Below, in pieces: positions 27,790-54,852 of a DNA stretch of 64,000 nt; position 1 is the stretch's first letter; every line of letters begins with the position of its first letter. The DNA is from a bacterium (GTDB lineage Bacteria > Patescibacteriota > Saccharimonadia > Saccharimonadales > SZUA-47), in NCBI GenBank assembly GCA_030427365.1, contig JAUHWW010000001.1, forward strand, positions 31,963 to 95,962, read 5' to 3'. The notes under the pieces are model-generated. The model was not told the DNA's origin, did not search any database, and was given only the letters and a program-made list of their open reading frames with translations. The position numbers and the translations under genes were made by a program.

Positions 27790-27801
27790 ACTATTTCCTC
27801 C

Positions 27802-33632: not shown

Positions 33633-33675
33633 CGTGTTTGCGCCCTTTGATGGTTAGTGTTTGTTTGGTCTAAAA

Positions 33676-35592
33676 CTACCGTAAATTAACTGATTCATTA
33701 TACCCCGTTTGGTCAAGGTTGACCTGTTGCTGTTGCCGCTGTTCTTCTATCTGCCTGACCTCATCAGGATTAGTAGTGATGAGTGAGGTTTCGGTTGGTG
33801 ATGCGGTAATCTGAATATGAACATGGTTTTCACCGGCAAAGAACAATCCCTGTCCGACTGGAAATTGGCTGAGACGTTTCTTTTCTTCACTGGTGAGCTT
33901 GAAGGTGTTGGCGAGCACGTCGACAGCTGAAGCGGATTGTTTCAGCAATATCTGCATACTAGCGTTGGCGACAATAGCACGCCCCATCTTGCTATCCATG
34001 AAGTCTTCAACGTCTTGCGTCACAGTAGTGATGCCGAGGTTGTACTTTCTGGCTCGCTTCGCCAAAGAGAAGAGGAAGTTTGCGGAATCTTCATATTTCA
34101 TGAGCTGCCATGCCTCATCAACAACCAGCATGCGCTTTTTACGATCAGTCTTTGTCTTGTTCCAAATGTAATTCAGGACAATGTACATTGCGACTGGACG
34201 TAGTTCATCCTCGAGGTCGCGGACATTGAACACTACCATCGGATTATCAATGTTGATGTTGCTTTGCTGAGAGAAAATGCCCGCAAATGTGCCGGTGGTA
34301 TATTTACGCAAGCGCTGCGCGAGCTCTGGGCCAGTTCCACCCATATGTAGCAGCGTGTCGTAGAGGTCATTAATGGTCGGCGCCGGCGTGTTGTGGGTCA
34401 GTGGGTCGTTGGTAATGCCAGCTTTTGCGTAGGTTTCGATCAGCGCAGCATCGAGGTCGGACTCTTCGACTGGGCTGAGCGCTGGCATCATGACTTGCCC
34501 GCCCTGGCTGGCCATTTGCGCCTGCGCACCGCCCATCATCAATCGCAGCAGTCCGTGCAAGGTAATAAGGTTGCTGCGCAGTGCGTCATCGGCTTCGGCG
34601 TCATCGGTGACTTTTGGCAGATCAAACGGATTAATACGCGTTGAGCTGTTAAGACTGAGGCGCACGTAGGCGCCACCGACGGCGTCTGCAAGGCGCTCGT
34701 ACTCGTTCTCAGGATCGATAATAAACACTTCGGTGCCGAACATCATACTGCGCAGCGCTTCGAGCTTGACGGTGAAGCTCTTACCAGCACCAGACTTTGC
34801 AAAGACAACACTGTTGCCATTCTCGAGACTGAAGCGATCAAAGATAACCAGCCCTGAGTTGTGCATGTTAACCCCATAGAGGACGCCGTCGTCTTGAGTG
34901 AGGTCGGCAGAGGTAAATGGGAAGCTGGTTGATATGGCGCCGGTATTCATGTTGCGGCGAACCTGCAACTGGTCGGTGAACTGCGGTAGCGTGGAGTTGA
35001 GCCCCTGCTCTTGCTGAGCACTGGCTGGCTTGCTGTATACGAGCTGCTGGGCTAAGACACTTTCTACTTTGTGGCTGACAAACTCCATTTCTTCAACGTC
35101 ATTTGCATAAACGGTAAAGTAGAAGCCGAATCGGAAGAAGCGCTCTTCTCCCACTTGCAATTTGTCGCGCAATTCCTCGGCGTCGTTGATGGCGGCTTGT
35201 TTTCCTGGATCGCGAGCACGGCCTTTTTCAGCATCAATCTGCAGGCCTGCTTCAAGCTGTCCGACCTTTTTCTTGAGGTTTTCCAGCACTACCTGACTCT
35301 CAACTGGGTAGACGAACAGGGATAAATCAATGACTTCATCGAGATTAATCATGCTTGATAACCAGCCGGTGTAGATTTGCCGCGGATACCCAAAGACGTA
35401 GTAGGTGCGACCAATTCGCGTGCCAATCTTGAACTGACTGCTTTCGAATTCGAGGGACGCCGGCGCGATAAAGTCACGCAGCGCGGTAATACCCTTTTGG
35501 AAGGCTGCCTGCACTTCAGCTTGTTCTTGCGCAGATTGCACTTGCGCCTGCGCGACAGGATCGGGCATCTTTTTACCGCCAAATAAGCCCAT
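33676..35592 (-). CDS. VirB4/TrbE-family type IV secretion ATPase
   Basis: Walker A VFAKSGAGKSFT, Walker B MLVVDEAWQL, 638 aa as in monoderm VirB4 (PrgJ/TcpF/Orf16-like). Confidence 0.8.
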   Translation of the reverse strand: MGLFGGKKMPDPVAQAQVQSAQEQAEVQAAFQKGITALRDFIAPASLEFESSQFKIGTRIGRTYYVFGYPRQIYTGWLSSMINLDEVIDLSLFVYPVESQVVLENLKKKVGQLEAGLQIDAEKGRARDPGKQAAINDAEELRDKLQVGEERFFRFGFYFTVYANDVEEMEFVSHKVESVLAQQLVYSKPASAQQEQGLNSTLPQFTDQLQVRRNMNTGAISTSFPFTSADLTQDDGVLYGVNMHNSGLVIFDRFSLENGNSVVFAKSGAGKSFTVKLEALRSMMFGTEVFIIDPENEYERLADAVGGAYVRLSLNSSTRINPFDLPKVTDDAEADDALRSNLITLHGLLRLMMGGAQAQMASQGGQVMMPALSPVEESDLDAALIETYAKAGITNDPLTHNTPAPTINDLYDTLLHMGGTGPELAQRLRKYTTGTFAGIFSQQSNINIDNPMVVFNVRDLEDELRPVAMYIVLNYIWNKTKTDRKKRMLVVDEAWQLMKYEDSANFLFSLAKRARKYNLGITTVTQDVEDFMDSKMGRAIVANASMQILLKQSASAVDVLANTFKLTSEEKKRLSQFPVGQGLFFAGENHVHIQITASPTETSLITTNPDEVRQIEEQRQQQQVNLDQTGYNESVNLR

Positions 35593-36389
35593 TACTGCAT
35601 CTCCCTCTCTAGGTTCGGGTTGACCGCCTGACCTTGGCCTTTTGTGATGACCGGCGCGGTCAAATCACTAAAGTTTTTGAGCTGCTGACGAGTGGCGGTA
35701 TCGGGGTTGTAAGCGTCGTAGTACAGTTCAATCAACTCTTGTGTATCGAGTGGCAACGACTTCACCTGACACTGCACGAGGCCGTTCATGGTGGCCTGAA
35801 TACGGTTTTTCAGCTCTGTTTTTGCGCGCTCCAGGTCAATTTCGTTGATAACGACCTTCTCTTCTTTCTTGCCGAAAATTGTCTGGAAAAACCCGCGTGA
35901 TGCTTGCACCACTTTCTGAGCATCCATTTTTGGCTCAAACGGGATGACCACGTAAAATTTCTTATCCATGATGTTGGTCTGCTGCGCGATAATTTCCATG
36001 TAATTGATGTAGTCTTCCATAAGGAGCGCAAGCAACATATTGTCATGTTCGGTGCGGATTTTATCGAGCTTTTCGATATATGGGCGGATGTCGATCTTCT
36101 GCGAGCGAACAAATACCTGAATCGGGAAATACAAAGAGTTTAAAAAGCCTTGGTAGGCGAACTCAACCGCCTCACGCTCATTTGGGCTCATAAGATCAAA
36201 GTTGATGCTCTGACACATCAGCACGGCGCGGAATGAGCCGTCGTTCATGATAACGATGCCGTCACGTATTTCGGCAATCTCTAAAGAGTTTTGTGTACTC
36301 GTCGGATTTGTCTGAGGCCCAGGCGGCGGCGGTCCGGCCTGTGGGGCGGTCACCTGGGGCTGAGCTGGTTGTTGCTGATTCGGATTCAC
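35592..36389 (-). CDS. hypothetical protein with Pro/Gln-rich N-terminus (T4SS-like block)
   Basis: TAATG overlap with virB4-like gene; no TM; MNPNQQQPAQPQVTAPQAGPPPPGPQTNP... Confidence 0.4.
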   Translation of the reverse strand: MNPNQQQPAQPQVTAPQAGPPPPGPQTNPTSTQNSLEIAEIRDGIVIMNDGSFRAVLMCQSINFDLMSPNEREAVEFAYQGFLNSLYFPIQVFVRSQKIDIRPYIEKLDKIRTEHDNMLLALLMEDYINYMEIIAQQTNIMDKKFYVVIPFEPKMDAQKVVQASRGFFQTIFGKKEEKVVINEIDLERAKTELKNRIQATMNGLVQCQVKSLPLDTQELIELYYDAYNPDTATRQQLKNFSDLTAPVITKGQGQAVNPNLEREMQ

Positions 36390-36422
36390 GCTATATCTTA
36401 CTTCCCACCCTTATTCAGCGGA

Positions 36423-37487
36423 CTAATGAAGTGGAACAACAACTTCACCGCTATCATCAGGTTCTTGATGACTCATCTCACGTTGGAATGACGAAATCGA
36501 GCGGTCATCGTTTTGACTTGCCATCAGTATAGCAGGATTTACGGGGGTAGCACTAGCGCTTTGCGCTTCGCTTTTGCGCCTAGCCGCCTCGGCCTCTTCT
36601 TCCGCCTTTCTCTTGGCCTCAGCTTCTCTCTCGGCCTGGGTTGGTATGCGCTTTTCATGGCTGCTTAGGCGTATCTTCTTTTGAGCTTCTTGCTCTTTGT
36701 GGAGCTTATCAAGCAGTTTCTTTTCATCAGCAGCTGTGAGCGTGCTCTTCACCTTTGGCGAAGCCTTCATTGAAGCGTGTTGCGGGCTGACTGGTGGCAA
36801 AGAAATGCTGCCCGTTAGTGTGTCTGCACCATTCCTTCTACTACCTTGCTTTGTGGTGTCACTAGTTTTTGCCTGCGCAACAAGATCGAGCGCCTCTTTG
36901 CGGTGCTCATTTTCTGATCTTTGTATCAATTCATCAACTTGAGATGAGCGCTCCTCAAGAATGTCAGGCGTGCGTTTAGCATTAATTTCCTCAGGGCTTT
37001 CCTGCCGAGGCGAAGGTGCTACCAGCCGGTCAGAATCATCTGGACGGGCTGCGTTTTTGACCGCCCACCCTCTTGAATCAACGACATTTGATAGAGCAGC
37101 AAAACGACTTTTAACTTCTTCTTGCGTTAGGCCATCTGTGTAGTAGTGGACTTCACGCTTAGGGACGGTAATTGTCACAAGATCTTTCATGCCCGACTGA
37201 TCCCAGATGCGCTTTCGTTTCATGAACAAGAAGCGGATGCGTGATGCGAGAAAGAGATCGGTCGGCTGATCTTTCGACCAAGGAATGGTAAAAACGAGTG
37301 AGATCAAAAAGAATGGCAGAAATAGGATCACCAGCCACGGAAGCGGACTGGTAAGCACTAAAAATGACAAGTAGCCTGTCACCATCGTCGCCATTGCAAA
37401 GAGGAATTGCTTGAAAGTCAACGGACCGATAAATTTGTCTTCGGCCTCTACGTCTTGTGGAACTTTATACTGCGCCATTGTAAGCAT
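36423..37487 (-). CDS. membrane protein, possible VirB3-like component with long charged coiled-coil tail
   Basis: Two N-terminal TM helices (FLFAMATMVTGYLSFLVL / LPWLVILFLPFFLISLVF) then KRKAEEEAEAARRKSEAQ-type charged region; immediately upstream of VirB4 partner genes. Confidence 0.4.
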   Translation of the reverse strand: MLTMAQYKVPQDVEAEDKFIGPLTFKQFLFAMATMVTGYLSFLVLTSPLPWLVILFLPFFLISLVFTIPWSKDQPTDLFLASRIRFLFMKRKRIWDQSGMKDLVTITVPKREVHYYTDGLTQEEVKSRFAALSNVVDSRGWAVKNAARPDDSDRLVAPSPRQESPEEINAKRTPDILEERSSQVDELIQRSENEHRKEALDLVAQAKTSDTTKQGSRRNGADTLTGSISLPPVSPQHASMKASPKVKSTLTAADEKKLLDKLHKEQEAQKKIRLSSHEKRIPTQAEREAEAKRKAEEEAEAARRKSEAQSASATPVNPAILMASQNDDRSISSFQREMSHQEPDDSGEVVVPLH

Positions 37488-37525
37488 AAGTATAGCTTAC
37501 ATAGGACATTTCGTTAACCGTGCGT

Positions 37526-39301
37526 TTAGCTACTTTTCTCTTTATGTAACCGAAGCAGTTCATCGACAGCATCATCGTATTTTTGAATTCTTTTTTCGTG
37601 GTCAACATCAGAAAATTTTTTCGGATCCCTCATGAGCTCACGCCGAATCTCTATTTCTCGAGGATTAATAGGACGTGGAATACTATAGTCTCGTGTAAAG
37701 CGAACTATAGAATCCCGCAAGGCCTGCGCTTCTTTTTCTTCGCCGCTTTGTATGATGTCGTCGGTTATTCCCTCAGCACGTTTTTTCAGATATCTAATGT
37801 AGGCGGTTTCATGTGTCATTTGGTTGGCAGCGCGCGCGTGCATGTCCATGTTTGTTTCGTCTTGGATCAGGACGGTTTTTCCAGTGTCGTCTTTACTTAC
37901 CTTAAGTCCTTCAGGAACTCCCCCGCTTTCCAAGAGCGACACTTCTATCGCTGCGTCAACTATTAAATGACCAGCAAATCTACCTGCCTCGTATAGCTGT
38001 CTCCGCAAACTTAAGGCATGTTCGAAATCCAAAGACCCTTCGACCTCAACCGTTCCTCTTGGTAGGTGTAATTCAGTCACGTCATCTCTATAGCTGATTA
38101 AGCGAACACCTGAGCCGTCTGTGAGTGATTTATTATTCGGGTTCCAGGTGAGTGTTGCTTCATCACCAAACTTATGGAGTACACCCCAGGCATCAACGTA
38201 TTTATCGCCAATTGTTTGATCGGAAAGAGGCTCATACTTAAAAGTGTGTTTCTCAACAGGTAATTGTGGTTCGACATATGGCGCTGGTTCAACTTTAGGC
38301 AGTGCATCATAATCTTCCTGCGTGTTACGTTTTACAGCTGTAATGATTTGAGCAGCTAGCTCAGGCGCCCTTCTAAAAGCTTGCTCTACGAAGTATTTCG
38401 CATTTTCTTGCAGGTGGTGTGCGGCTTCTTTTCTTGCTTCCTGGCGATTTTTTATTTTTTCTGCCTTATCGTCTGGAAGCTGCATACCAGGGTGAAAAGG
38501 ATCAATAGCCGTCTCAGTTTGCTTAAAGTGAGCTGCATCTCTTCGCGTTTTCGCAAGATGTCGGCCCATTTTCGTGGCATGTTGAACATCTGCATCGAGG
38601 TATGGCACAACCTGCACCAATTTGCGAATAGCGAGTGGGAGTGCTCTAGGACCAGTTTTTGTTGGATCTGATTCTTCGTAAGGCACAGAGGTACCCTTAC
38701 CTGCTGCGAGGCGCTCAGAGATGAAATGATCGGTTGCGACGGCTCTAAGCGCTTCAAGAAGTCCAGTATCTCCAGTGCTTAGTTCGGTTTTTATGCCTTT
38801 TTCAGCCTTGTGTGCTCTCTCGTTGGCACTTGTAATTCTTTTGAACACGGCTGCGATATCTTCCGTGCTTATATCTGCGGGCAGCATAGTTCTCTGTCCT
38901 TGCGAGCTACTGGATGGCGGCAAGTAACTGCCAATCGCCCATCTTACATACTCAGCCGCTACATACTCGTCCGGGACGCGGTTTAGGTCTTCAGAATAGT
39001 ATTCTCTTAGATCTGGTGAGGTAAAGCAGAGATCTTGCGTTGGCTTGCCTAAATCAACGGGCGCATAAGCAGAGGTGTTTACTAAGCTGTCAGAGTAGGG
39101 CGAAAGAGGACTTGTATGGTTCCACGATTTTCGGGTCGTGCTGCGAAATCCTCCGTCACCAGGCCCTACGGGCTGTCGATCATCAACAATCTCTACAAAG
39201 TTAACATCTAGGCTATCAGGTTTAGGGTGCTGGGGCTCTAAAGCGGGAGCGTGTTCGCCGGACATAGTATAAATATTACCAGAAATAGGCAATAAAGTCA
39301 A
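37526..39301 (-). CDS. hypothetical soluble protein (591 aa) in T4SS-like block
   Basis: No TM/signal, no recognisable catalytic motif by eye. Confidence 0.4.
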   Translation of the reverse strand: MTLLPISGNIYTMSGEHAPALEPQHPKPDSLDVNFVEIVDDRQPVGPGDGGFRSTTRKSWNHTSPLSPYSDSLVNTSAYAPVDLGKPTQDLCFTSPDLREYYSEDLNRVPDEYVAAEYVRWAIGSYLPPSSSSQGQRTMLPADISTEDIAAVFKRITSANERAHKAEKGIKTELSTGDTGLLEALRAVATDHFISERLAAGKGTSVPYEESDPTKTGPRALPLAIRKLVQVVPYLDADVQHATKMGRHLAKTRRDAAHFKQTETAIDPFHPGMQLPDDKAEKIKNRQEARKEAAHHLQENAKYFVEQAFRRAPELAAQIITAVKRNTQEDYDALPKVEPAPYVEPQLPVEKHTFKYEPLSDQTIGDKYVDAWGVLHKFGDEATLTWNPNNKSLTDGSGVRLISYRDDVTELHLPRGTVEVEGSLDFEHALSLRRQLYEAGRFAGHLIVDAAIEVSLLESGGVPEGLKVSKDDTGKTVLIQDETNMDMHARAANQMTHETAYIRYLKKRAEGITDDIIQSGEEKEAQALRDSIVRFTRDYSIPRPINPREIEIRRELMRDPKKFSDVDHEKRIQKYDDAVDELLRLHKEKSS

Positions 39302-39325
39302 TACGCTTATGCTGGTAATAATCTC

Positions 39326-40171
39326 TTAGGCCTCTTGGTCGTCAGCGCCAGCCCGGCTCTCTTGCTGTCGTCGCATCATCTCGAGCTCTTCCTGTGTCAT
39401 ACCCGCTTCGCGGCTAACCGATCTCGCACCTTCTATAATTGCTCTTAGCTCAGGAGGTACATCCGCTTCATTCATGCGCTCCCTAACAATCTTAGTAACT
39501 GGCTGTCCATTTTCGACGACAGTAACTGTTCGCTCTACCATTGGCCAGCTTGCACCCGCTTCTATGAGATCTGATAGAGTATTTGCATCCTTGCCATCAA
39601 TAGTAAATTTGAAGTTCTCGTCTTTCGTTTTTGGTCTTGGGAGATCAAAGCCATTCGCAACAATCCTTTGAACTTCGCCGTTTGCTGTCGCATTAACATT
39701 TTGCCGCATGCTTTTCATCTGACCAATGCGTTGTCCCATAAGTCGCAAATCAGCTTCTCTTTTTTCGCCAGCAGTTTGAGTGACCCTTCCTTCCTCATCA
39801 ACGCTATCAGTGTATTTGTTTTGTGAGAGGCGAGTTTCAATTTCCTGTACGTCTGCACCTAGCATAGATACAAGATTTTTTGCATCCGTCGGATGGATGT
39901 TGTTCCAGTCGTAGGTACCCATGGCATCAAGCGTCTTTTGCTTCATGCGCAGGTTAATATCTTCTTTGGTCATGCCGGCTTTAATTGTATGTGTTTCACC
40001 AGTAATTTCATCTTGGTAAGTAATATCTTGTGTCGTCGCATCGCCACCACTGGCATTTATCATACGGTTTGCCTGTGCGAGAGCGAGACCCTCACCAAAT
40101 GAGATACGAGATAGCATATATCGCCTGGTTGTAGGCTTCGGCGTAGAGCACTGTATTTCCATGAGTACCAA
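39326..40171 (-). CDS. hypothetical soluble protein (T4SS-like block); start may be downstream ATG (~40063) to avoid 80-nt overlap
   Basis: ORF track; hydrophilic; overlaps 3' end of VirB6-like gene. Confidence 0.35.
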   Translation of the reverse strand: MVLMEIQCSTPKPTTRRYMLSRISFGEGLALAQANRMINASGGDATTQDITYQDEITGETHTIKAGMTKEDINLRMKQKTLDAMGTYDWNNIHPTDAKNLVSMLGADVQEIETRLSQNKYTDSVDEEGRVTQTAGEKREADLRLMGQRIGQMKSMRQNVNATANGEVQRIVANGFDLPRPKTKDENFKFTIDGKDANTLSDLIEAGASWPMVERTVTVVENGQPVTKIVRERMNEADVPPELRAIIEGARSVSREAGMTQEELEMMRRQQESRAGADDQEA

Positions 40172-42122
40172 CCTCTATGTCATCCAGCATTTCTGTGGCG
40201 CCATTAATATGCGACGTTTTTGAGCCTGCTTTTGCGGCAGCCGCCATGCCTCCGAGCGAGTCACCATAGGTGTTGTAGAGTGTTCTCGCCTGGGCAATCT
40301 CACCCTCCGCGTCTAGTCCAACAATACCGTTTTTCTCAAGTTCAATTTTCGCCTCTAATTCGTTTCCTTCGGCCCTTGCGAGCGCCAAGTATGCTTGAAC
40401 AAAATTGTCGTTTGCAAATTTCGTCCCAACATTCTTGTCTTCTCCAGCATGCCTCTCGTGCTCTCTATGAAGTCGATCTGCAGCTGCCTTTCTGTTTCCA
40501 GCACTGAGCTTATCCTTCAGACTGTCATCTGTACCCAGAGACTCTTTTAGAGCGAGACCGCTTTTCGTTGCGCTGTTCAAGCGGCTTCCAAAGCGAGATT
40601 TTGCGGCCTTGCTACCCGGCCGTAATAGCCCTCTTTGCTGCACCCGTTCCCAGTCCTTCTTTCCCCTTTCCCGGCGGAACTTCTTTTGTCTATCAAAGAT
40701 ACCTTTACCACGATCATTGACCATGCCGGCGAGGTTGGCGAATGCGCCGCCAAGGTATTTGAATGCGGCTGGAATGGCAAAGAACGGACCAATGTAGGCA
40801 ATGAACTTTAGGAACAAGCTGAATACGCCCTCTAAGCCCTCAAGATCAGAAGTAAAGACGACAGCTGCGAAGCCCCTGCCTGCATAGAGAAGCAGGATAA
40901 TAAGTGGGAATATCATTAGTAACTTGCTGAATGTTGACCACCATAGTTTCCACAGCTTGTCATTGCCGGGGAAAATCCATGACACGATCGCGATCGGCGC
41001 CATAATAATAAGGAAGATTATCAGGAGCTCTCTCACTGAGAGAAGTGCAAAGATAATTATTACTGCCAGAGCCGACGTGAACAGAAAGCTCATGAGAATG
41101 CTGATCGATACAATGCCAACAGCAAGTGCAGCGACAATACCGACAAGACCAACACCCAGTGTTGCGGTTGTTGCAGCCCCTTCTCCTATAGAGAAGACAT
41201 CTGTAAATTCGAGTGCTCCTTTACCGCCAAATGGCGCCGCCACCAGCCCTCCAACGCCATTACCGACATTGTTGGTGAACTCAATTAAGAACACACATAT
41301 ATCAAACGAGAGTGCCATAAATATGACGGCAATGAAGAGTCGTGGCATTGCTCGCTTCACGGTGTAGGCGTCGACAAACTGGAAACCCAATGCAGTTGAT
41401 ATCACCATCACGAGCAAGACTGGTATGAGCAAAATATAGCTGATATTACGGAAGCTCGACCAGACAGCGCGCAATTCAGGGGTCGAGTAGTATTCTTCCT
41501 TTACTTCCAGCGCATCAATGATCTGCTGATCAACCTCTTCAATGACTTCGGCAGAGCCATAGATGATCGGACAGAGTAGCCATCCCCATCCATCCCCACT
41601 TTGTTCACAACTATCTTGCTCAACCACGTCGCCTTCTTCAGGAACATCTGAACTACCGACACCGTCGGGGTTATCGCTGAGCAAAGGACTAATGCTGCCA
41701 CAATCTACCGGAAGAGCTTGACCAGACAGATAGCAGAGACCATTCCCAACACCAACCTCTTGTTGAGGGTTACACTCAGCTTCATCGTAGAAGCCAGCTT
41801 GACTTCCGCTATCAAGTAGTTCGTAACAGCCGGGAGGAGCAGAACTCCCAACTCCGCCTGGGTTGTCGCTAAGCAGCGGCGTAATACTGTTACAGTCTAC
41901 CGGAAGAGCTTGACCAACCAGATAACAGTTTCCATTTCCAACTCCAGCTTGTTGAAGTGAATTACACTCACCTTCATCATAAAAGCCATTTTGAGGTCCA
42001 CCAGAGAGTAGTTCGTAACAGCCAGGATCGGCTGCAAAAGCAGTTTCTGTTGGGATCAGACTTAGTCCAAAAGCTCCAATCAGTACAAAAAATGCTGCGA
42101 AGAAGTAATGTAGAATTTTCAT
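40092..42122 (-). CDS. VirB6/TrbL-like polytopic T4SS channel protein with duplicated Cys-rich N-terminal ectodomain modules
   Basis: Signal peptide, two ~60-aa modules each with 4 Cys (PGCYELL...GFYDE.ECN...GVGNG.CYL.GQALPVDC), then ~8 TM helices, charged C-terminal tail. Confidence 0.6.
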   Translation of the reverse strand: MKILHYFFAAFFVLIGAFGLSLIPTETAFAADPGCYELLSGGPQNGFYDEGECNSLQQAGVGNGNCYLVGQALPVDCNSITPLLSDNPGGVGSSAPPGCYELLDSGSQAGFYDEAECNPQQEVGVGNGLCYLSGQALPVDCGSISPLLSDNPDGVGSSDVPEEGDVVEQDSCEQSGDGWGWLLCPIIYGSAEVIEEVDQQIIDALEVKEEYYSTPELRAVWSSFRNISYILLIPVLLVMVISTALGFQFVDAYTVKRAMPRLFIAVIFMALSFDICVFLIEFTNNVGNGVGGLVAAPFGGKGALEFTDVFSIGEGAATTATLGVGLVGIVAALAVGIVSISILMSFLFTSALAVIIIFALLSVRELLIIFLIIMAPIAIVSWIFPGNDKLWKLWWSTFSKLLMIFPLIILLLYAGRGFAAVVFTSDLEGLEGVFSLFLKFIAYIGPFFAIPAAFKYLGGAFANLAGMVNDRGKGIFDRQKKFRRERGKKDWERVQQRGLLRPGSKAAKSRFGSRLNSATKSGLALKESLGTDDSLKDKLSAGNRKAAADRLHREHERHAGEDKNVGTKFANDNFVQAYLALARAEGNELEAKIELEKNGIVGLDAEGEIAQARTLYNTYGDSLGGMAAAAKAGSKTSHINGATEMLDDIEVGTHGNTVLYAEAYNQAIYAISYLIW

Positions 42123-42227
42123 GGCTAGGTAATTATGTACTGAAACTATAACAAAATTTTACCTCTTTTGCTTATCTGATTTTGCTAAGTAGTTATCGAG
42201 CAGGTATTATCTACTATAGATATCACC

Positions 42228-42629
42228 ATGAAAATACTAAAATCACTGCTTATTTTAACCCTTTTTCTAGCACCAGCTAGCCAGGCTGCGAACGCTTCTG
42301 CAAGCGCCACAGATTCAGATAATTTTCGTTTTTCCGCAGCGTTAAACTTCAGTGCTGAGTGCGATCCGCCGCCGAACCAAGACTTGACATCAGAAAATTG
42401 CGGCATCGTTGCGTACCTCGTACTTGCAATTAATGTCCTCTCAGCTGTTGCAGGAATAGCAATTGTTGCGTCGATTATGATAGCCGGATTTCAGTATATG
42501 ACGGCTCGGGATAATGCTGGACAAGTTGAGGCGGCACGTAAACGGATTGTCTGGGCGCTGTTAGCATTGCTGATATTCATATTCACCTATGCCTTTCTAA
42601 ACTTCGTTGTCCCGGGAGGCGTCTTGTGA
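42228..42629 (+). CDS. VirB2/TrbC-like pilin paralog 1
   Basis: Signal peptide, 2-Cys variable segment, two C-terminal hydrophobic helices separated by ARDNAGQVEAARKR loop. Confidence 0.5.
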   Translation: MKILKSLLILTLFLAPASQAANASASATDSDNFRFSAALNFSAECDPPPNQDLTSENCGIVAYLVLAINVLSAVAGIAIVASIMIAGFQYMTARDNAGQVEAARKRIVWALLALLIFIFTYAFLNFVVPGGVL

Positions 42630-43330
42630 TAATCCGTAGGCTACTCAGCTTTACAACGTTGGTTCTTTTTGCCGCAGTTTTACCCCTCAATAGTAGTTCA
42701 TTTGTGAGCGCTCAAACTGGTGAGGACATCTGTCCAAACCCCGGAACCTCAAGCTACGTAGCTTGTGTGCAGGAAGTGAATCAGAAGTTATCTGCATGTG
42801 ATGCGCTTGGAACAGGAACAACAACATGGCAGAGCTGTAGGGAAGAGATATTTGATGATTACGGTTTTTCTGCAGGAGACGGCCCGGAAGTGGATGAGGG
42901 GTTGCCGGCTGGCGCCGCTGTCACTGCAATAAGAGAGGATCCGTGCGGCGAGAATGAGTATGCAACAGATATTTTAGGCATTCCTGTCTGGTACAAGTAT
43001 CTTGATGTTAGGAAGGATGTTTATGAGTACGACAGTGGTGATGAAGTTGAAGGAAAGTGTACGCCTCGTCTAAGTGAGTCAGGCGGCGGTATTGACCCCA
43101 CCTCAGCGTTACCAATCGGGCTAGCGGTACTCGAGGCCATGATGGTCATAGCCGGCTTAGTCGCGGTCGTGATGATTTTCTGGGGCTCCTTCCTTTACCT
43201 GGTCAGCCAGGGTGAGTCAGACAAGGCTGCCGGGGCGCGTAAAACAGTTATCAACGCGGCGATTGGTTTGGTGATCGTGATAATCGCGACGCGTGTCGTA
43301 TCATTTATAGCAACGAGGCTAACAAGCTGA
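42626..43330 (+). CDS. VirB2/TrbC-like pilin paralog 2 (long 6-Cys N-terminal domain)
   Basis: Signal peptide; C-terminal ...MIFWGSFLYLVSQGESDKAAGARKTVINAAIGLVIVIIATRVVSFI; ATGA overlap with paralog 1. Confidence 0.5.
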   Translation: MIIRRLLSFTTLVLFAAVLPLNSSSFVSAQTGEDICPNPGTSSYVACVQEVNQKLSACDALGTGTTTWQSCREEIFDDYGFSAGDGPEVDEGLPAGAAVTAIREDPCGENEYATDILGIPVWYKYLDVRKDVYEYDSGDEVEGKCTPRLSESGGGIDPTSALPIGLAVLEAMMVIAGLVAVVMIFWGSFLYLVSQGESDKAAGARKTVINAAIGLVIVIIATRVVSFIATRLTS

Positions 43331-43629
43331 TGCTGCAAAAAATTACACAGTTCATCGCACAGATAAGTATCGACGAAGGCGATATTGACATTCCTACCAA
43401 CGTTGATCCGGATTCTGGTTCAATTGATACACTTTTGACTCTCATGTTTAGTGTCATGGGTGGGATTGCCCTGCTCGTGATCATCATCGCAGGTATGCAA
43501 TTTGTCCTTAGCCGTGGTGATGCAGAAAAAGCTGCTAAAGCTCGCCGCACTATTATCTATGCCGCTGTTGGGCTCGTGATTGCCGTTATGGCCTTTACCA
43601 TTGTTAGCTTTGTTGTAGGGAGTGTGTGA
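43330..43629 (+). CDS. VirB2/TrbC-like pilin paralog 3 (short, no obvious signal peptide)
   Basis: C-terminal IIIAGMQFVLSRGDAEKAAKARRTIIYAAVGLVIAVMAFTIVSFVV. Confidence 0.45.
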   Translation: MLQKITQFIAQISIDEGDIDIPTNVDPDSGSIDTLLTLMFSVMGGIALLVIIIAGMQFVLSRGDAEKAAKARRTIIYAAVGLVIAVMAFTIVSFVVGSV

Positions 43630-44048
43630 TGTTACGCCGAGCCCTACTCTCACTTCTTGTTTTAGCCTTCTTACCACTGGCTATGACCTCAAGTGTGTCG
43701 GCAGGTGGTTTTGACCCTCTAGGCCGTGCATGTACTACGACAAACGAAGACGGAGAGACAATAAGAATAGAATCGGCTGCATGTGAGGAGAGTGAAACTG
43801 GTCAAGGCTCAGATAACCCGGTCACAGGAGAGACAGGTATTGTGGAACGTGTTGCGAACATTCTCGCGATTGTTACGGCGATTATTGCCATCATTATTAT
43901 CGTCATCGCAGGTATGACGATGTCGCTTTCTGGGGGTGACTCTACAAAGGTGCAGAATTCACGCAACGCCATTATCTACGCCGCTGTTGGCCTAGTGGTT
44001 GTCGCGCTTGCACGAACTATAGTAGTATTTGTGGTAAATAGATTATGA
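43626..44048 (+). CDS. VirB2/TrbC-like pilin paralog 4
   Basis: Signal peptide; 2 Cys; IIVIAGMTMSLSGGDSTKVQNSRNAIIYAAVGLVVVALARTIVVFVV. Confidence 0.5.
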   Translation: MMLRRALLSLLVLAFLPLAMTSSVSAGGFDPLGRACTTTNEDGETIRIESAACEESETGQGSDNPVTGETGIVERVANILAIVTAIIAIIIIVIAGMTMSLSGGDSTKVQNSRNAIIYAAVGLVVVALARTIVVFVVNRL

Positions 44049-44500
44049 AAAAGATACTATCGTTTTTTGTTAGCCTTACCTTGCTCAGCGGTTTTTTCGC
44101 ATTCGTGTATGGGCCCCAGCCAGTCATGGCATCTGACGCAGCGAAAGACGCCATCTGTTCAGGCATCGTAGCGGCAGGTGAAGATTGCGGTACGGACGCT
44201 GATGCTGACAGCAGTTCGGTAAGCTCTACTATCGAGACGGTGATCAATATCCTTTCTGTTATCGGAGCCGTTATAGCGGTCATCATGATCATTATTGGTG
44301 GTATGAAGTTCATTACCTCACAGGGTGATGGCAATTCCACAGCTGGTGCGCGCAATACGATTATCTACGCTGTTGTCGGATTGGTCATCATTGCGCTCGC
44401 GCAAGTGATTGTGCAGTTCGTTGTAGGACGGGTTGGCAGTGATCCGCCAGCCTCTCAAAATGTTCCTCCTCCACTACCTCCAGACGGTGGCCCGAGTTAA
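44045..44500 (+). CDS. VirB2/TrbC-like pilin paralog 5 (Pro-rich C-terminal tail)
   Basis: Signal peptide; 2 Cys; IIIGGMKFITSQGDGNSTAGARNTIIYAVVGLVIIALAQVIVQFVV + PPASQNVPPPLPPDGGPS. Confidence 0.5.
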   Translation: MKKILSFFVSLTLLSGFFAFVYGPQPVMASDAAKDAICSGIVAAGEDCGTDADADSSSVSSTIETVINILSVIGAVIAVIMIIIGGMKFITSQGDGNSTAGARNTIIYAVVGLVIIALAQVIVQFVVGRVGSDPPASQNVPPPLPPDGGPS

Positions 44501-44570
44501 AAAGGATTGAGCTCCGATGGAGCTTGTGGTATAAAGTACATAAACAAAGTAATAAGGAATTAGACTAATC

Positions 44571-45014
44571 ATGACAAGACTAAAACGACTATTAGCAAGT
44601 TTTATGCTGACATTCAGCTTTGCAGTGCCAGCGCTCGTGCCGGCTGTAGCTGCGGCTCAAGGCACCAATAACACGGATCAATTATGTGCGGGGGCTAATC
44701 TTGAGTTCACGCTTGATCCAGAAGCAGGTGTCTGTGAAGGAGACGGGGAGGAAGGAAATGCGGGGGACACACTTACCGGTATTGTCACGACTATCATTAA
44801 TATCCTATCAGTGGTCGTTGGTATCGTGGCAGTCATCATGATTATCGTCGGTGGCTTCCAATACCTCACGTCACAAGGTGATTCAGGCAAGGTAACAAAT
44901 GCGAAGAACACGATCCTCTATGCAATTGTTGGTCTCGTAATAGTAGCGCTGGCTCAAATCATCGTCCAGTTCGTGACTGGTCGACTCGGAAACGCACCAG
45001 CATCCGATGGTTAA
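44571..45014 (+). CDS. VirB2/TrbC-like pilin paralog 6
   Basis: Signal peptide; 2 Cys; IIVGGFQYLTSQGDSGKVTNAKNTILYAIVGLVIVALAQIIVQFV; good RBS AAGGAA. Confidence 0.5.
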   Translation: MTRLKRLLASFMLTFSFAVPALVPAVAAAQGTNNTDQLCAGANLEFTLDPEAGVCEGDGEEGNAGDTLTGIVTTIINILSVVVGIVAVIMIIVGGFQYLTSQGDSGKVTNAKNTILYAIVGLVIVALAQIIVQFVTGRLGNAPASDG

Positions 45015-45033
45015 CAGAGCACTTAACTCTAGT

Positions 45034-45066
45034 AAAAATCTCCCTGCTGTTACGGGGAGATTTTTA
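45034..45066. terminator. bidirectional rho-independent terminator after pilin array
   Basis: aaaaatctccc-tgctgttacg-gggagattttt (A-run/stem/T-run). Confidence 0.5.
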
Positions 45067-45101
45067 TTTAGCTACTGGTTACTCTACAAAAGCAGCAATT
45101 A

Positions 45102-45131
45102 AAAAACCGACGTATAGCTACGTCGGTTTTA
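45102..45131. terminator. bidirectional rho-independent terminator after hsp20
   Basis: aaaaaaccgacgta-tagc-tacgtcggtttta. Confidence 0.5.
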
Positions 45132-45148
45132 TCCTAGTTCGCTTTGTG

Positions 45149-45646
45149 CTAGTTGATCGTAATCTTCTTGACTGTGTCTTGTTTGAGCTTGTTGAAGCTG
45201 ATGGTTAGAACGCCGTCTTTAAGCATGGCTTCAATTTCATCTTCCTTCACAGGTACTGGCAGTGCGATGCTGCGGCTAAATTCGCCCCAGTAGCATTCCT
45301 GCACGAAGTAGTTCTCCACGCCCTCTTCAGCGCCAGCTGATAGTGTGCCGCGAATTGAAAGCGTATTATCAGCGATACTGACGTCGAGATCGTCTTTGTT
45401 CACGCCAGCGGTGCGGGCTTTTACGACCAACTTCTCTTTCGTCTCATAAACATCAACAGCGAGCTGACCAGGAACAGCCTCGTCCTCATCCCATTCATCG
45501 GCGGCAGGCGCTTCTTGCATCGGCTCATCACCGGCCATATCATCAACTGGGTCAGCAGTTTGTGGCTGATCCATCTCATCACCCAAAAAGGCTGCAGTTA
45601 ACTCATCTTCTAGTAGTAAGTCGTCGTCACGGTTGCGTCGTGCCAT
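45149..45646 (-). CDS. Hsp20/alpha-crystallin small heat-shock protein with acidic N-terminal extension
   Basis: ACD motifs LSIRGTLSAG...GEFSRSIALP...DGVLTISF. Confidence 0.75.
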   Translation of the reverse strand: MARRNRDDDLLLEDELTAAFLGDEMDQPQTADPVDDMAGDEPMQEAPAADEWDEDEAVPGQLAVDVYETKEKLVVKARTAGVNKDDLDVSIADNTLSIRGTLSAGAEEGVENYFVQECYWGEFSRSIALPVPVKEDEIEAMLKDGVLTISFNKLKQDTVKKITIN

Positions 45647-48245: not shown

Positions 48246-49118
48246 ATGGCAAAAAAGCAGCAAACACCAGTAATCAGTATTGAAGACGTCTCCAAGGTCT
48301 ATGGCTTTGGTGATGCAACAACCGTGGCGCTTGATGAAGTAACGCTCGAGGTTAACAAAGGCGAATTTATCGCTGTCATGGGGCCAAGTGGTTCGGGAAA
48401 AACGACGCTGATGAACATTATCGGTTTGCTCGACCGACCCTCACACGGCCGCTATATGCTGAGTGGCCGCGACGTATCACGCGTGAGCAAAAACCGACGC
48501 GCCAAAGTGCGTCGAGACAACATTGGCTTTATTTTTCAGTCATTTAATCTTTTGCCGAACATGACGGCTTTGGAGAACGTGGCCCTTCCGCTTGCCTACA
48601 AAGGTCGCACAAAAACGCGCCGGCTCAAACTTGCTTCGAACGTGCTGGACCGGGTTGGCTTGTCTGACCGCGAATATTATTTGCCGACGCAGCTCTCGGG
48701 CGGACAGTTGCAACGCGTGGCGATTGCCCGTGCTCTCGCCAATGACCCAAGCATTATTATCGCTGATGAGCCGACCGGTAATCTTGATAGCGTGTCAGCC
48801 CGCGTCGTGATGGAGATGCTCAGTGACATACATAAAACCGGCAATACGGTGATTATGGTGACGCATAACCCTTCCCTGACCCGCTACGCTGACCGCATTA
48901 TCTACATGCTCGATGGCAGCATCGTGTACGACGAAGCGAGTGCGGTGGGCGAGGTACCAAGCCGCGTGCAACGAGCGGTCAACGCACTGCGCCAATCTGA
49001 TGACGATGAGAAATTAGCGAATGTTTCAGCTATGATCGAGACAATGCCTGATAGCAAAAGCGACGACAAGCCGAAGAAGAAGCGGAAGTACAAAAAGCGG
49101 AAGAAGGCGAAGAAATGA
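48246..49118 (+). CDS. ABC transporter ATP-binding protein (MacB/LolD/FtsE-type) with Lys-rich C-terminal tail
   Basis: [42 protein letters not shown]; tail [14 protein letters not shown]. Confidence 0.85.
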
Positions 49119-50341
49119 AGCTTTTAATCGAATACTACAAAATGGCGCTGCAGTCGATTCGGGCAGCTCGTTTCCGCTCACTTCTAACGATGTTCGGCAT
49201 CATTATTGGCGTGAGTTCGGTGGTTACAGTTATCTCGCTTGGCGAAGGCGTTCGTCAACAGGTCACGACGCAAGCTGGTGAGGTGTCTGATTCGCTGATC
49301 GTTGTACGCCCTGGCCGCGAGCGCGAAGCTAAGGCTTTTTCGTTGGATTCCCTGCGCTCCTACGTTAACAACAACACCGGCAGTCTGAGCGAGAAAGATT
49401 GGCGTGATACGCAAAAAGTCGAAGGTGTTCGCTCGAGCGTGCCTGTCGGCATCGTTAGTGGCATCGCTGAGTATGAGGAGCGAGAATACTCCGGAAGCAT
49501 TATCGCCAGCACGGAGCGCTTGCCAGTGCTGCTTAACCAAGAGGTAGAGTTCGGTGAGTTCTACGAAGACACTGCGTCATCCAGGCAGAAAACCGCGGTT
49601 ATAGGCCGTGACGTGGCGGAGCAGTTATTCGAAGAAAATGTGCCAATTGGCAAATCATTTCAGATACGCGGCGAAAAGTTCATCGTTATCGGCGTGTTTG
49701 CGCAGCAAGATTCTGGGACGTTTGCTGCGATCAACGTCAACACCTCAATTATGATTCCGTTTGATGCCGCTCGCGATATTGGCGGCACGATCCAGCTGCT
49801 ACAGATTTATATCGAAGCAGCGGAGTCGGCGGATGTTTCGATGGTATCTCAGGCAGTTCGAAAAACGCTGATAGAGAATCACGCTGGTCAGGAGGATTTT
49901 ACCCTGCTGGAGCGTGAGGAAGCGCTTGAAGCGACCAACGCCGTGTTTTATCAGCTTACCGTCTTTATCGCTGGTGTTGCCTTTATCTCATTCATTGTTG
50001 GCGGCATCGGCATCATGAACATTATGTTTGCCACCGTCAGTGAACGTACACGGGAGATTGGCATCCGCAAGGCGATTGGCGCAACAAATTCGCAGATTTT
50101 GGGCCAGTTTATGATGGAGGCAACGGTTCTCAGCCTGGTTGGCGGGATATTTGGCATTGGTCTGGCGCTACTAGCAAATGGGATCATTCGCGTCACATCA
50201 GACTTGCAGCCGGTTACTACGTGGCAAGTTGTCGTTATCGCTGCGGTGATTTCTGTACTGACTGGGATTGTATCTGGGCTTTTACCTGCTGTACGCGCTG
50301 CGAGGAAGGATCCGATTACATCCCTTCGCTCCGGTATCTAA
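49115..50341 (+). CDS. ABC transporter permease, FtsX/MacB-type
   Basis: N-terminal TM, large extracytoplasmic domain, 3 C-terminal TM with GIGIMNIMFATVSERTREIGIRKAIGA. Confidence 0.8.
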   Translation: MKLLIEYYKMALQSIRAARFRSLLTMFGIIIGVSSVVTVISLGEGVRQQVTTQAGEVSDSLIVVRPGREREAKAFSLDSLRSYVNNNTGSLSEKDWRDTQKVEGVRSSVPVGIVSGIAEYEEREYSGSIIASTERLPVLLNQEVEFGEFYEDTASSRQKTAVIGRDVAEQLFEENVPIGKSFQIRGEKFIVIGVFAQQDSGTFAAINVNTSIMIPFDAARDIGGTIQLLQIYIEAAESADVSMVSQAVRKTLIENHAGQEDFTLLEREEALEATNAVFYQLTVFIAGVAFISFIVGGIGIMNIMFATVSERTREIGIRKAIGATNSQILGQFMMEATVLSLVGGIFGIGLALLANGIIRVTSDLQPVTTWQVVVIAAVISVLTGIVSGLLPAVRAARKDPITSLRSGI

Positions 50342-50376
50342 ACGAACAGTGTGACAAAAAAGGTACAATTAAATAG

Positions 50377-50994
50377 ATGAAGCTTACTCTCAGGCGGTTT
50401 AATAATTTTTTGTCGGTCATCGTTATAGTGCTTGGCCTCTACATCGCTATTACGCCGTTCTTGCCCGTGATAGGCTACTGGTTTACAGACAAGTCGCCGG
50501 AAGCGAGCGCACCGTACGGTGGAGGTTTGGCTGAGCGAGTTGGTAGCTCGAGCGACGCTCCCCCACCCCAGGAGAACCGAATCGTCATTCCGTCTATTCA
50601 GGTGAACGAGCCAATTTTAGAGAGTTCAAACATCGGCGTCATCAATGATGGTGGTACGTGGCGTCGTCCAAACACAGCGACGCCGACTGAGGATGACAAC
50701 ACGGTGATTGTCGGTCATCGTTGGTTTGGTAATGAAGTCTCCACGTTCTATCACCTGGATAAAGTCCAGCCAGGGCAGACTTTGGCGCTGTATTGGGAGG
50801 GTGAAGAACTCTTGTATGAAGTCGTTGCCAAAGAAATTGTCGATGCGACGGCAGTGCAAATCGAAGCGCCAACGGATGAAAAACTGCTAACAATCTATAC
50901 ATGCGATCCAATTTGGACGGCCAGAAATCGGCTCGTTATTGTCGCGAAACCGCTTGTGAATGATACGAATGCTCAGGAGACAGAGGATGTTTAA
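50377..50994 (+). CDS. sortase (class E-like transpeptidase)
   Basis: N-terminal TM anchor; catalytic His in VIVGHRW, Cys in LLTIYTCDP (TLxTC), Arg in ARNRLVIVA. Confidence 0.75.
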   Translation: MKLTLRRFNNFLSVIVIVLGLYIAITPFLPVIGYWFTDKSPEASAPYGGGLAERVGSSSDAPPPQENRIVIPSIQVNEPILESSNIGVINDGGTWRRPNTATPTEDDNTVIVGHRWFGNEVSTFYHLDKVQPGQTLALYWEGEELLYEVVAKEIVDATAVQIEAPTDEKLLTIYTCDPIWTARNRLVIVAKPLVNDTNAQETEDV

Positions 50995-51124
50995 GAAACT
51001 GCGAAACTGGCAGCTAACAGAAAAGCAACGAACGATTATTTTGCTGTTATTGCTCGCCTTCGCCATCGGGTTTATCATCTGGACCCGCCAGCAGTATTCC
51101 ACGAATTTTGTTGATAGCTTTTAG
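50987..51124 (+). CDS. possible 45-aa single-TM small protein overlapping sortase stop
   Basis: ATG 50987; MFKKLRNWQLTEKQRTIILLLLLAFAIGFIIWTRQQYSTNFVDSF*; not in ORF track. Confidence 0.3.
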   Translation: MFKKLRNWQLTEKQRTIILLLLLAFAIGFIIWTRQQYSTNFVDSF

Positions 51125-51786
51125 CTGGCCAAGGAATCAAGCAGTTTTTTATCAAGCGCAGTTAAGCTGTGGAGTTTTAGATCGGCGGTGTTAATGAACG
51201 GGTGGTCAAAGTGTTCTTCATCAGGCACCGCAATACACGTCATTTTTGCGGCTTTTGCCGCCAGCACACCTGAAGGTGAATCTTCAAACACGAGGCAGTG
51301 CTGCGGCTCGACGTTGAGGTGTGAGGCGGTCGATATAAATACTGCCGGATGAGGCTTCCCATGAGTTTCATGTTCTGCAGAGAACAGCTCGACAAAGTAA
51401 TCACGTATGCCGAGTGTGCTGATGACCACATCGATGAGTTCTGATGAAGAGCTTGATGCGACTGCGAGGGGCACGTTTAGAGATTTACAGATATCAAGTG
51501 TTTCCTTGACGCCATCTCGCAGGGTGCCCTCTGCTTTGACCAGCTCAAGTACGCCGTCAATAATACCGGCTTCGATGTCTTTACGAGATTTACCTTCCCA
51601 GGGACGCTCATGAAACCAGTGTTCGACCACCTCATCGATTCGTCTTCCCATTGTCGACTTCATGTCTTCTTCTGTCAGATCAACGCCGACGCTTGCAAAC
51701 ACCTCTTTTGAAGCGCGTCTCCAAAACGGCTCGCTGTCAATTAGCAATCCATCCATATCAAAAATAATTGCTTTGATGTTACTCAT
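51121..51786 (-). CDS. HAD-superfamily hydrolase (beta-phosphoglucomutase-like)
   Basis: Motif I IIFDMDGLLIDSE; 221 aa. Confidence 0.8.
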   Translation of the reverse strand: MSNIKAIIFDMDGLLIDSEPFWRRASKEVFASVGVDLTEEDMKSTMGRRIDEVVEHWFHERPWEGKSRKDIEAGIIDGVLELVKAEGTLRDGVKETLDICKSLNVPLAVASSSSSELIDVVISTLGIRDYFVELFSAEHETHGKPHPAVFISTASHLNVEPQHCLVFEDSPSGVLAAKAAKMTCIAVPDEEHFDHPFINTADLKLHSLTALDKKLLDSLAS

Positions 51787-52810: not shown

Positions 52811-52877
52811 TGTGCCTCTTCCCTTTTATGCTCTATACTATAGCGCAAAGCAATAACAACAAATAAGGGTGGGGTGA

Positions 52878-53465: not shown

Positions 53466-53552
53466 AAAGCCCTGTTCCGACGGGCAAACGGCCAATATTT
53501 TTGACGTCAAAAATATTGGATAAAAACCGCTCGCGGTTCAGAAAAACATCTT

Positions 53553-53674
53553 GGCAATACCCGGAAAAACTAACGTTCCTGCGGAACGCTCAAAGGCGGC
53601 CAGCAACTGTTCTCCTAGTTATTTGTTGCTGGCTGGTCCTCGGAAGTGACTCGCTAGTTTTTCCGGGTATTGCC
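53553..53674. repeat. 122-bp element bounded by 23-bp near-perfect inverted repeats with two internal hairpins (candidate structured sRNA or MITE-like element)
   Basis: GGCAATACCCGGAAAAACTAACG ... CGCTAGTTTTTCCGGGTATTGCC (22/23 complementary); internal cgttcc-tgc-ggaacg and gccagcaac-N20-gttgctggc. Confidence 0.4.
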
Positions 53675-53724
53675 AGAGTTTACTGAAAGCGAGAGAGCGG
53701 CTAGAGCTGGGAGCTCTGCGCCGT

Positions 53725-54848: not shown

Positions 54849-54852
54849 CTAA

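Follow-up and report, generated by a model that had tools for sequence, protein, structure and literature searches.

For the only Saccharibacterium that has been tested genetically, Southlakia epibionticum ML1, a type IV secretion system (T4SS) and a tandem array of pilin genes, SEML1_0014–0019, are essential for epibiotic life (Wang et al. 2023, Cell, PMC10633639). All six genes of that array were called growth-defective and then essential by transposon-insertion sequencing (Tn-seq) on one host, the short third gene SEML1_0016 included; they measure 399, 558, 312, 381, 384 and 417 nt, and 83 nt lie between the fifth and the sixth. Table S1 of the same study gives the order as dnaA-dnaN-recF, the minus-strand genes SEML1_0004–0013, the six plus-strand genes and a convergent hsp20, and the accessible part of its Table S2 lists the family PF18895 on SEML1_0014–0016, 0018 and 0019 and the family PF04956 on the last two. 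A solitary pilin gene a few kb off in ML1, SEML1_0024, is non-essential. Similar arrays have been surveyed more widely: the searchable text of Quinonero-Coronel et al. 2025 (Microb Genom, PMC12102498) reports 441 arrays of 2–11 pilin genes in 383 Patescibacteria assemblies, with a mean within-array identity of ~25%, abundant in Saccharimonadia and situated close to virB4 and often to dnaA; it likens them to the virB2 paralogues of Bartonella and Anaplasma and presents them in terms of tandem amplification and variation. A 2025 review repeats this description and speculates on a pilus-like conduit, a 2024 perspective terms the role of the T4SS ‘completely unknown’, earlier papers on TM7x label the same genes ‘putative effector genes’ or a ‘Sec secreted array’, and a 2026 preprint describes tubular structures at the parasite-host interface that are possibly T4SS pili. 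The array considered here lies at positions 42228–45014 of a 64,000-nt stretch of DNA from an uncultured Saccharibacterium (contig JAUHWW010000001.1 of GenBank assembly GCA_030427365.1, forward-strand positions 31,963 to 95,962), the whole of which is called the window below.

The array in the window is of this published and genetically tested kind, and what it contributes is not a new system but a set of refinements: six types of pilin in a set order, a last gene with a predicted promoter of its own, a member without a signal peptide, and a hot spot of strain variation in the second gene. Judged by gene layout and family matches rather than by ML1 sequences, the likeness to ML1 is close. Six tandem PF18895 genes stand on the strand opposite to the T4SS genes, after a VirB6-like gene, before a convergent hsp20 and within a few kb of dnaA-dnaN-recF; the third is a short gene, a spacer precedes the sixth (70 nt here, 83 nt in ML1), TrbC is detectable on the last genes, and the gene order of the T4SS cluster is that of SEML1_0001–0013. 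The window differs from ML1 in the length of pilin #2 (234 aa against 185 aa), which is due to an extra four-Cys module, in a Pro-rich tail on pilin #5, in a VirB6-like gene that is interrupted in the assembly, and in coming from a different, uncultured Saccharibacterium. The same array layout, with a divergent VirB6-like gene, a convergent hsp20 and dnaA nearby, is present in three loci from public assemblies (L001, L082 and L084). As to the Patescibacteria survey, its searchable text has no mention of six old types in a fixed order, of a third gene that lacks a signal peptide or of a last gene under a promoter of its own, as predicted here.

Six tandem open reading frames (ORFs), all intact, run head to tail on the plus strand from 42228 to 45014 in an operon-like arrangement, and are numbered here as pilins #1 to #6, corresponding to orthogroups G1 to G6. 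Pilin #1 (42228–42629; 133 aa) has a signal peptide, an ectodomain with a Cys45/Cys58 pair, a two-helix core and a conserved C-terminal VPGG motif. Pilin #2 (42626–43330; 234 aa from a GTG start) is the largest and holds six Cys; from N- to C-terminus it consists of a signal peptide, a strain-specific four-Cys module, a conserved membrane-proximal domain forming a small beta-sheet, with the motif C107..ILGIPVWYKYL..GKC145, and the two-helix core. Pilin #3 (43330–43629; 99 aa) has neither signal peptide nor Cys, and joins an acidic N-terminal tail of ~30 aa directly to the two-helix core. The remaining three are alike in having a signal peptide, one Cys pair and the core: pilin #4 (43626–44048) with Cys36/Cys53, 140 aa long from the GTG at 43626 or, as gene-called, 139 aa from an alternative ATG at 43629; pilin #5 (44045–44500; 151 aa) with Cys38/Cys48 and an added Pro-rich C-terminal tail, a lineage-specific feature found in 2/57 orthologues; and pilin #6 (44571–45014; 147 aa) with a conserved LCxGAN..C disulfide loop (Cys39/Cys55). 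Neighbouring genes overlap at the first four junctions (by 4, 1, 4 and 4 nt), and a spacer of 70 nt separates #5 from #6. An Rfam scan of 41800–45400 gave no match near any gathering score.

The alignable part of the six proteins is confined to a C-terminal core of ~70 aa, which is 24–34% identical to that of #1 and has four invariant columns, with the consensus IIIAGFQYxTSQGDSxKVAxARNTIIYAAVGLVIVALA. Every core consists of two long hydrophobic segments with a short polar loop between them, and the loop has from one to five lysine or arginine (K/R) residues. The N-terminal parts before the core contain, from #1 to #6, 2, 6, 0, 2, 2 and 2 Cys, and an N-terminal K/R followed by a hydrophobic stretch, the signature by which signal peptides were called (a hydrophobicity and charge heuristic), is seen in #1, #2, #4, #5 and #6 and not in #3. 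Much of the first-pass annotation of this locus stands on these observations: its coordinates for the six tandem ORFs are exact, its core motif agrees with the alignment consensus, and the six Cys of #2, the signal peptides on all but #3, the Pro-rich tail of #5 and the two hydrophobic helices around a short charged loop, the last also seen in predicted structures of #2 and #6, are all as it had described them.

Profile searches place the proteins in pilin families. PF18895 (T4SS_pilin; gathering cut-off 26.6 bits) matches all six far above chance level, with E from 4.7e-4 to 9.8e-15; #2 to #6 pass the cut-off with 38.0, 45.4, 37.9, 45.4 and 54.8 bits, respectively, and #1, at 20.6 bits (E 4.7e-4), falls below it, with position-1 orthologues elsewhere scoring up to 58 bits. 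The TrbC/VirB2 family PF04956 (cut-off 27.9 bits) is passed narrowly by #6 (28.2 bits, E 2.2e-6), is matched sub-threshold by #5 (24.9 bits) and #3 (19.7 bits), and gives no match for #1, #2 and #4. All six score 21–40 bits, at or below the cut-off of 40 bits, against NCBIfam NF045849 (Mbov_0395 family pilin-like conjugal transfer protein), and alignment of the G1 profile with those of the other groups by hhalign returns probabilities of 98.7–99.5%. Homologues of #6 carry Saccharibacteria or Saccharimonadales annotation. AlphaFold2 (AF2) models pilin #6 as a helical hairpin (helices 64–100 and 105–140) with a low-confidence ectodomain, at an overall predicted local distance difference test (pLDDT) score of 64, and pilin #2 as a hairpin of helices 158–193 and 198–233 beneath a confident three-stranded sheet at 99–147, at a pLDDT of 77; within the hairpins of both, the core reaches 77–90. 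The PF18895 matches on all six, the TrbC match on #6 and the T4SS neighbours together establish the six genes as VirB2/TrbC-related pilin paralogues, that is, as a Saccharibacterial T4SS pilin array, as had been proposed from the ORFs.

To set the array among its relatives, 80 Saccharibacteria loci were collected with a profile of #6 and scanned with a family hidden Markov model made from the array, and copy numbers were counted in the 61 complete arrays that do not touch a contig end. Six copies are present in 35 of these, seven in 21, five in 4 and eight in 1, so the view that six copies are unusual for a T4SS does not hold in this group, where five to eight are the rule and have been published as such. 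About a third of arrays have an extra #6-like copy at the end (L003, L007, L023, L030, L036 and the other seven-gene loci); the extra copies of seven-gene arrays are #6-like, and the window has only the six. The genes of different loci correspond by position: the best BLAST match in another locus sits at the same position for 50/54, 56/57, 57/57, 52/57, 42/57 and 53/56 comparisons of #1 to #6 (74–100%), and comparing the relatives with the window's own six pilins gives an equal positional picture. Each position also has its own character. The first gene is very variable in length (124–425 aa, 0–22 Cys), the second is usually ~139 aa, the third is short (87–121 aa), usually without Cys and with a signal-peptide-like region in 0/57, and the last three are of ~135–142 aa with exactly two Cys in ~90% of cases.

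By profile-profile comparison with hhalign all six types are homologous, at ≥98.7% probability; types 4, 5 and 6 are homologous over their full length, and types 1 to 3 have only the core in common. This homology, taken with the positional orthology, indicates that the paralogues are six old types held in a fixed order. Recent tandem amplification was considered as an origin and is ruled out by the positional orthology and by the divergence of the homologous types. Cores and ectodomains have changed at very different rates: core identity across species is 0.64–0.82 for type 6 against 0.36–0.58 for the other types, and ectodomain identity is 0.06–0.32, far more variable than that of the cores, which bears out the description of the N-terminal segments as hypervariable. 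The ectodomain of type 1 is the most variable of all (6% identity) and essentially unalignable across species. In the largest position-1 and position-2 proteins of relatives (263–425 aa), Pfam detected the pilin core only and no adhesin domain.

Two further proposals of the first-pass annotation fare badly in this comparison. Pilin #3 had been suspected of being a donor cassette or pseudogene for want of a signal peptide, and this is rejected: a member of ≤121 aa occupies the third place in 52/61 arrays, #3 has its positional counterpart in all 57 comparisons, and the corresponding gene of ML1 is essential. Switching by exchange of cassettes, at which that annotation had hinted, finds no support either, given the age and fixed order of the types, dN/dS values of at most 0.38 wherever measurable (below), and the shortness of what the copies share. 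Within the array, the longest tracts common to two copies measure 33 nt, at 79% and 70% identity, which makes it unlikely that the copies recombine with one another.

The last gene stands apart in its predicted expression. A promoter-like element occupies 44507–44535 on the plus strand of the spacer before #6, with a -35 sequence TTGAGC at 44507–44512, a 17-nt spacer and an extended -10, TGGTATAAA, at 44527–44535, and an AAGGA Shine-Dalgarno-like sequence lies ~13 nt 5' of the #6 ATG. Downstream of the gene, 45035–45069 (+) reads as a terminator-like hairpin followed by a T-run (AAAAATCTCCC, a loop of ~10 nt, GGGGAGATTTTTATTT). Both elements were identified from the sequence, the promoter also by comparison between loci; a generic promoter and terminator scan had missed them, the -10 hexamer ending in A and the loop limit of the scan being 8 nt. 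The extended -10 motif TGnTATAA occurs in 40/52 of the spacers that precede the final pilin gene, where shuffling the spacers yields 0.95 on average and 5 at most; it sits 25–45 nt 5' of the start codon, and in 37/40 cases a TTG is found at the -35 position. In none of 56 arrays does the penultimate gene overlap the last, the median gap being 73 nt. Pilin #6 thus has its own conserved promoter, as predicted from these motifs. Translational coupling had been claimed for all six genes, and is upheld at the first four junctions by their overlaps but not for #6, because the 70-nt spacer with its promoter separates it from #5. On the strength of this promoter, the conservation of its core, the best family scores and the #6-type nature of extra copies, pilin #6 is probably the major, or bulk, subunit.

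Variation among close relatives is concentrated in a different gene. The species is represented in public assemblies by two haplotypes, one shared by the window and L001 across the array and the other by L082, L083 and L084, which are identical and come from three other samples. The haplotypes are without mismatch over 34693–42466, 43568–44567 and 48768–55000, and diverge sharply at ~42560–43400, the signal peptide and ectodomain of #2, where a 200-column alignment block can hold as many as 78 mismatches and 45 gap positions. The ectodomain of pilin #2 is the sole strongly diverged stretch in ~20 kb between these near-clonal strains, the 7.8 kb upstream being mismatch-free. Between haplotypes the signal peptide of #2 is 38% identical and its N-terminal Cys module 50%, with indels of 34 aa and 13 aa; the membrane-proximal domain is 71% identical, with a ratio of nonsynonymous to synonymous divergence (dN/dS) of 0.12; and the core is 100% identical as protein, with a dS of 0.27. 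Both alleles retain six Cys. As for the other genes, #1, #4 and #5 are protein-identical between haplotypes, two residues distinguish the versions of #3, and those of #6 are 95% identical, at a dN/dS of 0.04. Wherever it can be measured between the two haplotypes, dN does not rise above dS, measurable dN/dS in #2 being 0.12–0.38 and that of its core 0; synonymous sites in the variable part of #2 are saturated, with a proportion of differing synonymous sites (pS) of 0.67–0.75. A search of a 5.8-billion-protein collection for more #2 alleles returned the two haplotypes and distant orthologues only.

The suggestion that the ectodomains diversify to determine specificity is therefore only partly sustained: the ectodomain of #2 does differ strongly between near-clonal strains, as would fit a surface that sets specificity, but the other genes do not follow it, #1, #3, #4 and #5 being identical or nearly so, and the excess of dN over dS expected of diversifying selection is absent wherever it can be measured. 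The pattern in #2 is what would be expected if a diverged allele had come in through homologous recombination, a plausible event in a lineage whose natural competence is described in the 2025 review. A second, milder divergent tract (2–12% of nucleotides between haplotypes) extends from 44568 to ~48700 and holds pilin #6, hsp20, a phosphoribosyltransferase-like gene, a gene for a membrane protein resembling spermidine synthase and the beginning of an ABC transporter; the dS of hsp20 is 0.18 there with zero amino-acid changes, and the tract looks like one of recombination.

Pilins of the VirB2 type are inserted in the membrane as hairpins with both ends outside, and are extracted by a VirB4-containing platform and packed with the loop towards the lumen and the termini on the outside. 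By extension, pilins #1, #2, #4, #5 and #6 would be exported by Sec and lose their signal peptides, #3 would insert without one, and all six would come to rest as hairpins, the short basic loop on the cytoplasmic side and both the N- and the C-terminus on the cell exterior. A VirB4/VirB3/VirB6 platform would then extract them and polymerise them into one heteromeric pilus or conduit, in which the subunits would not be interchangeable: #6 would provide the bulk, and #1 to #5 would be low-copy, specialised subunits that serve initiation or form the tip or base. The ectodomains, stapled by disulfides, would lie on the outside of the filament and face the host, the very variable ones of #1 and #2 being the likeliest host-contact surfaces, and new alleles of these two ectodomains would enter by homologous recombination between strains. 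This reading of the array, as a heteromeric pilus or conduit of distinct subunits, is somewhat likelier to be right than wrong. A single heteromeric structure is preferred to a set of alternative pilins because every type is conserved in order and because, in ML1 grown on one host, insertions are depleted in each of the genes. A more specific version can be put forward only tentatively, and has clearly the poorer chance of proving correct in all its parts: an obligate heteromeric VirB2-type filament in which a separately transcribed #6-type major subunit and five minor subunits, #3 among them by another route of insertion, would form a set reminiscent of that of type IV pili, with host specificity set by the ectodomains of #1 and #2 and swapped by recombination in competent strains.

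Several observations weigh against this interpretation. No filament of these proteins has been shown to date, and the essentiality of the upstream genes by Tn-seq could partly reflect polar effects. Major and minor subunits are assigned from conservation and a predicted promoter rather than from measured expression or stoichiometry, and the charge bias behind the proposed topology is modest. Positive selection on #2 is not demonstrated, given the synonymous saturation and the two haplotypes available. Foldseek searches of the PDB with the AF2 models of #6 and #2 gave nothing at E ≤ 0.001 (best E 1.2), the non-significant helical matches including the T-pilus entries 8exh and 8cue (E 5.9–6.7, TM to target 0.34–0.44) and the A. 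pernix pilus 8dfu (E 4.6, TM to target 0.62), and a PDB sequence search with the profile of #6 orthologues returned only spurious matches, the best to cytochrome bd (E 0.059). The fold comparison, made with predicted models, neither confirms nor contradicts homology to VirB2, the case for which is made by profile matches and gene context and not by fold.

It is worth considering, then, whether the same genes might build something else. The array could encode a repertoire of interchangeable pilins, each able to build a pilus alone and used according to host or to evade recognition, with silent or defective donors such as #3; antigenic or receptor-specificity variation was proposed in the first-pass annotation and is what Quinonero-Coronel et al. 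2025 (PMC12102498) suggest, in its searchable text, from the analogy with Bartonella and Anaplasma, and the high divergence of the paralogues, their variable Cys-bracketed ectodomains and the strong difference in #2 between near-clonal strains all agree with it. Such a repertoire is nonetheless improbable, for the six types are old and in fixed order across Saccharibacteria, ML1 requires every one of the six when grown on a single host, the supposed donor #3 is conserved and its ML1 counterpart is essential, the six ORFs are all intact, #1, #3, #4 and #5 scarcely differ between the two haplotypes, and the best DNA repeat between copies, 33 nt at 79%, is insufficient for gene conversion. A stronger competitor, though still unlikely, is that no extended pilus exists and that the proteins are membrane-embedded translocon parts of a monoderm T4SS, for example a short stalk or a channel lining through membrane and wall. 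No pilus has been demonstrated in the literature, no significant fold match to solved pili was obtained, and homologues occur in conjugation loci of Bacillota and Mollicutes, where pili are not known (the Mycoplasma family NF045849 of integrative and conjugative elements, ICEs, and a gene pair in Pontibacillus, below). Set against these points are the TrbC/VirB2 score of #6 above the Pfam cut-off, the large, fast-evolving, disulfide-bonded ectodomains, which are more in keeping with an exposed surface than with a buried channel, and the tubes at the parasite-host interface in the 2026 preprint, possibly T4SS pili. The older notion behind the TM7x labels, that these are small Sec-secreted effectors delivered to the host, draws on the signal peptides of five of the six and has next to no likelihood: all six match pilin families, and each has two long hydrophobic C-terminal helices that would retain it in the membrane, by which a soluble secreted effector is ruled out.

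The preferred heteromeric pilus or conduit would be served by the machinery encoded beside it. Divergent from the pilins, on the minus strand at 39326–42122, lies the gene of a VirB6-like polytopic membrane protein, a single 940-aa ORF in L001, L082 and L084 (with a weak PF19590 TrbL_3 match in these three) and split in the window into ORFs of 676 aa and 281 aa by the absence of 26 bp at 40120/40121 (TCGCCCACCTCGCTCGGCTGCTGCTC, with TCGCC repeats at its flanks). Because the ML1 counterpart is essential, the deletion probably reflects a misassembly or a minority variant. An inverted repeat of 14 nt (93% complementary; 42111–42124 and 42226–42239) overlies the start codons of this gene and of pilin #1, whose products both begin MKIL; it may be a coincidence or a common regulatory or translation-initiation feature.

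The rest of an oriC-proximal, monoderm-type T4SS cluster, delimited by Pfam scan and gene calls, fills 27061–39301, also on the minus strand. In coordinate order it comprises a 242 aa protein without Pfam match (27061–27789), a wall hydrolase with GDSL lipase-like, phage-tail lysozyme and VanY D,D-carboxypeptidase domains (27802–29787), proteins of 187 aa (29788–30351) and 1094 aa (30348–33632) without Pfam match, a VirB4-like ATPase (33676–35592), a TraC-like protein of 265 aa, a PrgI/VirB3-like protein (36423–37487; the TraC-like gene lies between this and the VirB4-like gene) and a protein of 579/591 aa without Pfam match (37526–39301). The positional counterparts in ML1 of the four genes without Pfam match (e.g. 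SEML1_0007) are essential. No relaxase or coupling protein was found among the 46 window ORFs scanned with Pfam, a set that does not include every ORF of the window, and no VirB5 was detected, unlike in diderm T4SSs. Beyond the cluster lie dnaA, dnaN and recF (23220–27044) and a YidC gene (21143–22087), and hsp20 lies downstream of the array and convergent on it. Further out, a separate 943-aa protein (16081–18912, minus strand) also has a GDSL lipase domain, and a sortase gene (50377–50994, plus strand) lies 5 kb downstream of the array, identical in both haplotypes; none of the six pilins has an obvious LPXTG.

The T4SS and pilin array are essential for epibiotic life in the one Saccharibacterium tested. 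The refinements matter chiefly for what they allow experimenters to do. The comparison turns ‘variable tandem pilins’ into a testable scheme of six ordered types, with #6 as the probable bulk subunit, #3 as a member without signal peptide and #1 and #2 as the fast-evolving surfaces, and it points to the genes through which the existence of a pilus and the determinants of host range might be tested.

Placed among known systems beyond ML1, the array recalls first the VirB2/TrbC/TraA pilins of diderm bacteria (PF04956; T-pilus and F-pilus), with which it shares the signal peptide, the two helices around a short basic loop and VirB3, VirB4 and VirB6 neighbours. It departs from them in its monoderm host, in having six paralogues rather than one, in the extra disulfide-bonded N-terminal ectodomain, and in a predicted fold whose match to solved pilins is not significant. 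The proteins of the Mbov_0395 and MMCAP2_0565 type (NF045849), from ICEs of Mollicutes and elements of Bacillota, have the same core and likewise occur in monoderm T4SS loci, but as one or two copies on mobile elements, where the window has six in a chromosomal system of essential type. A comparable case was met on the megaplasmid of Pontibacillus sp. ALD_SL1 (NZ_CP062975.1; L085, 11785–12697), where two pilin-like genes in tandem encode proteins of 151 and 145 aa. Both proteins have a signal peptide, one Cys pair and an ITSQGD..AK core, and after the pair come genes for a polytopic (VirB6-like) protein of 779 aa, a small PrgI-like protein, a VirB4 of the CD1110 family and a wall hydrolase. 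This pair indicates that the pilin family is also found in T4SS loci of Bacillota, and it bears on the published claim that monoderm T4SS classes are without VirB2 homologues; a tblastn search of plasmids with #6 gave a single match.

The virB2 paralogues of Anaplasma and Bartonella and the pilE/pilS genes of Neisseria resemble the array in providing several pilin copies with variable surface-exposed parts. In those systems the copies are recent and similar, or are silent cassettes, and they recombine. The copies here, by contrast, are 24–34% identical, share no DNA tracts, and are intact and in fixed order, and all are required in ML1. A possible analogy in function is with type IV pili and the pseudopili of type II secretion, where one abundant subunit goes with a conserved set of low-copy ones and the genes follow a set order in an operon. 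It is an inferred likeness, drawn between systems whose protein folds and assembly machines are unrelated.

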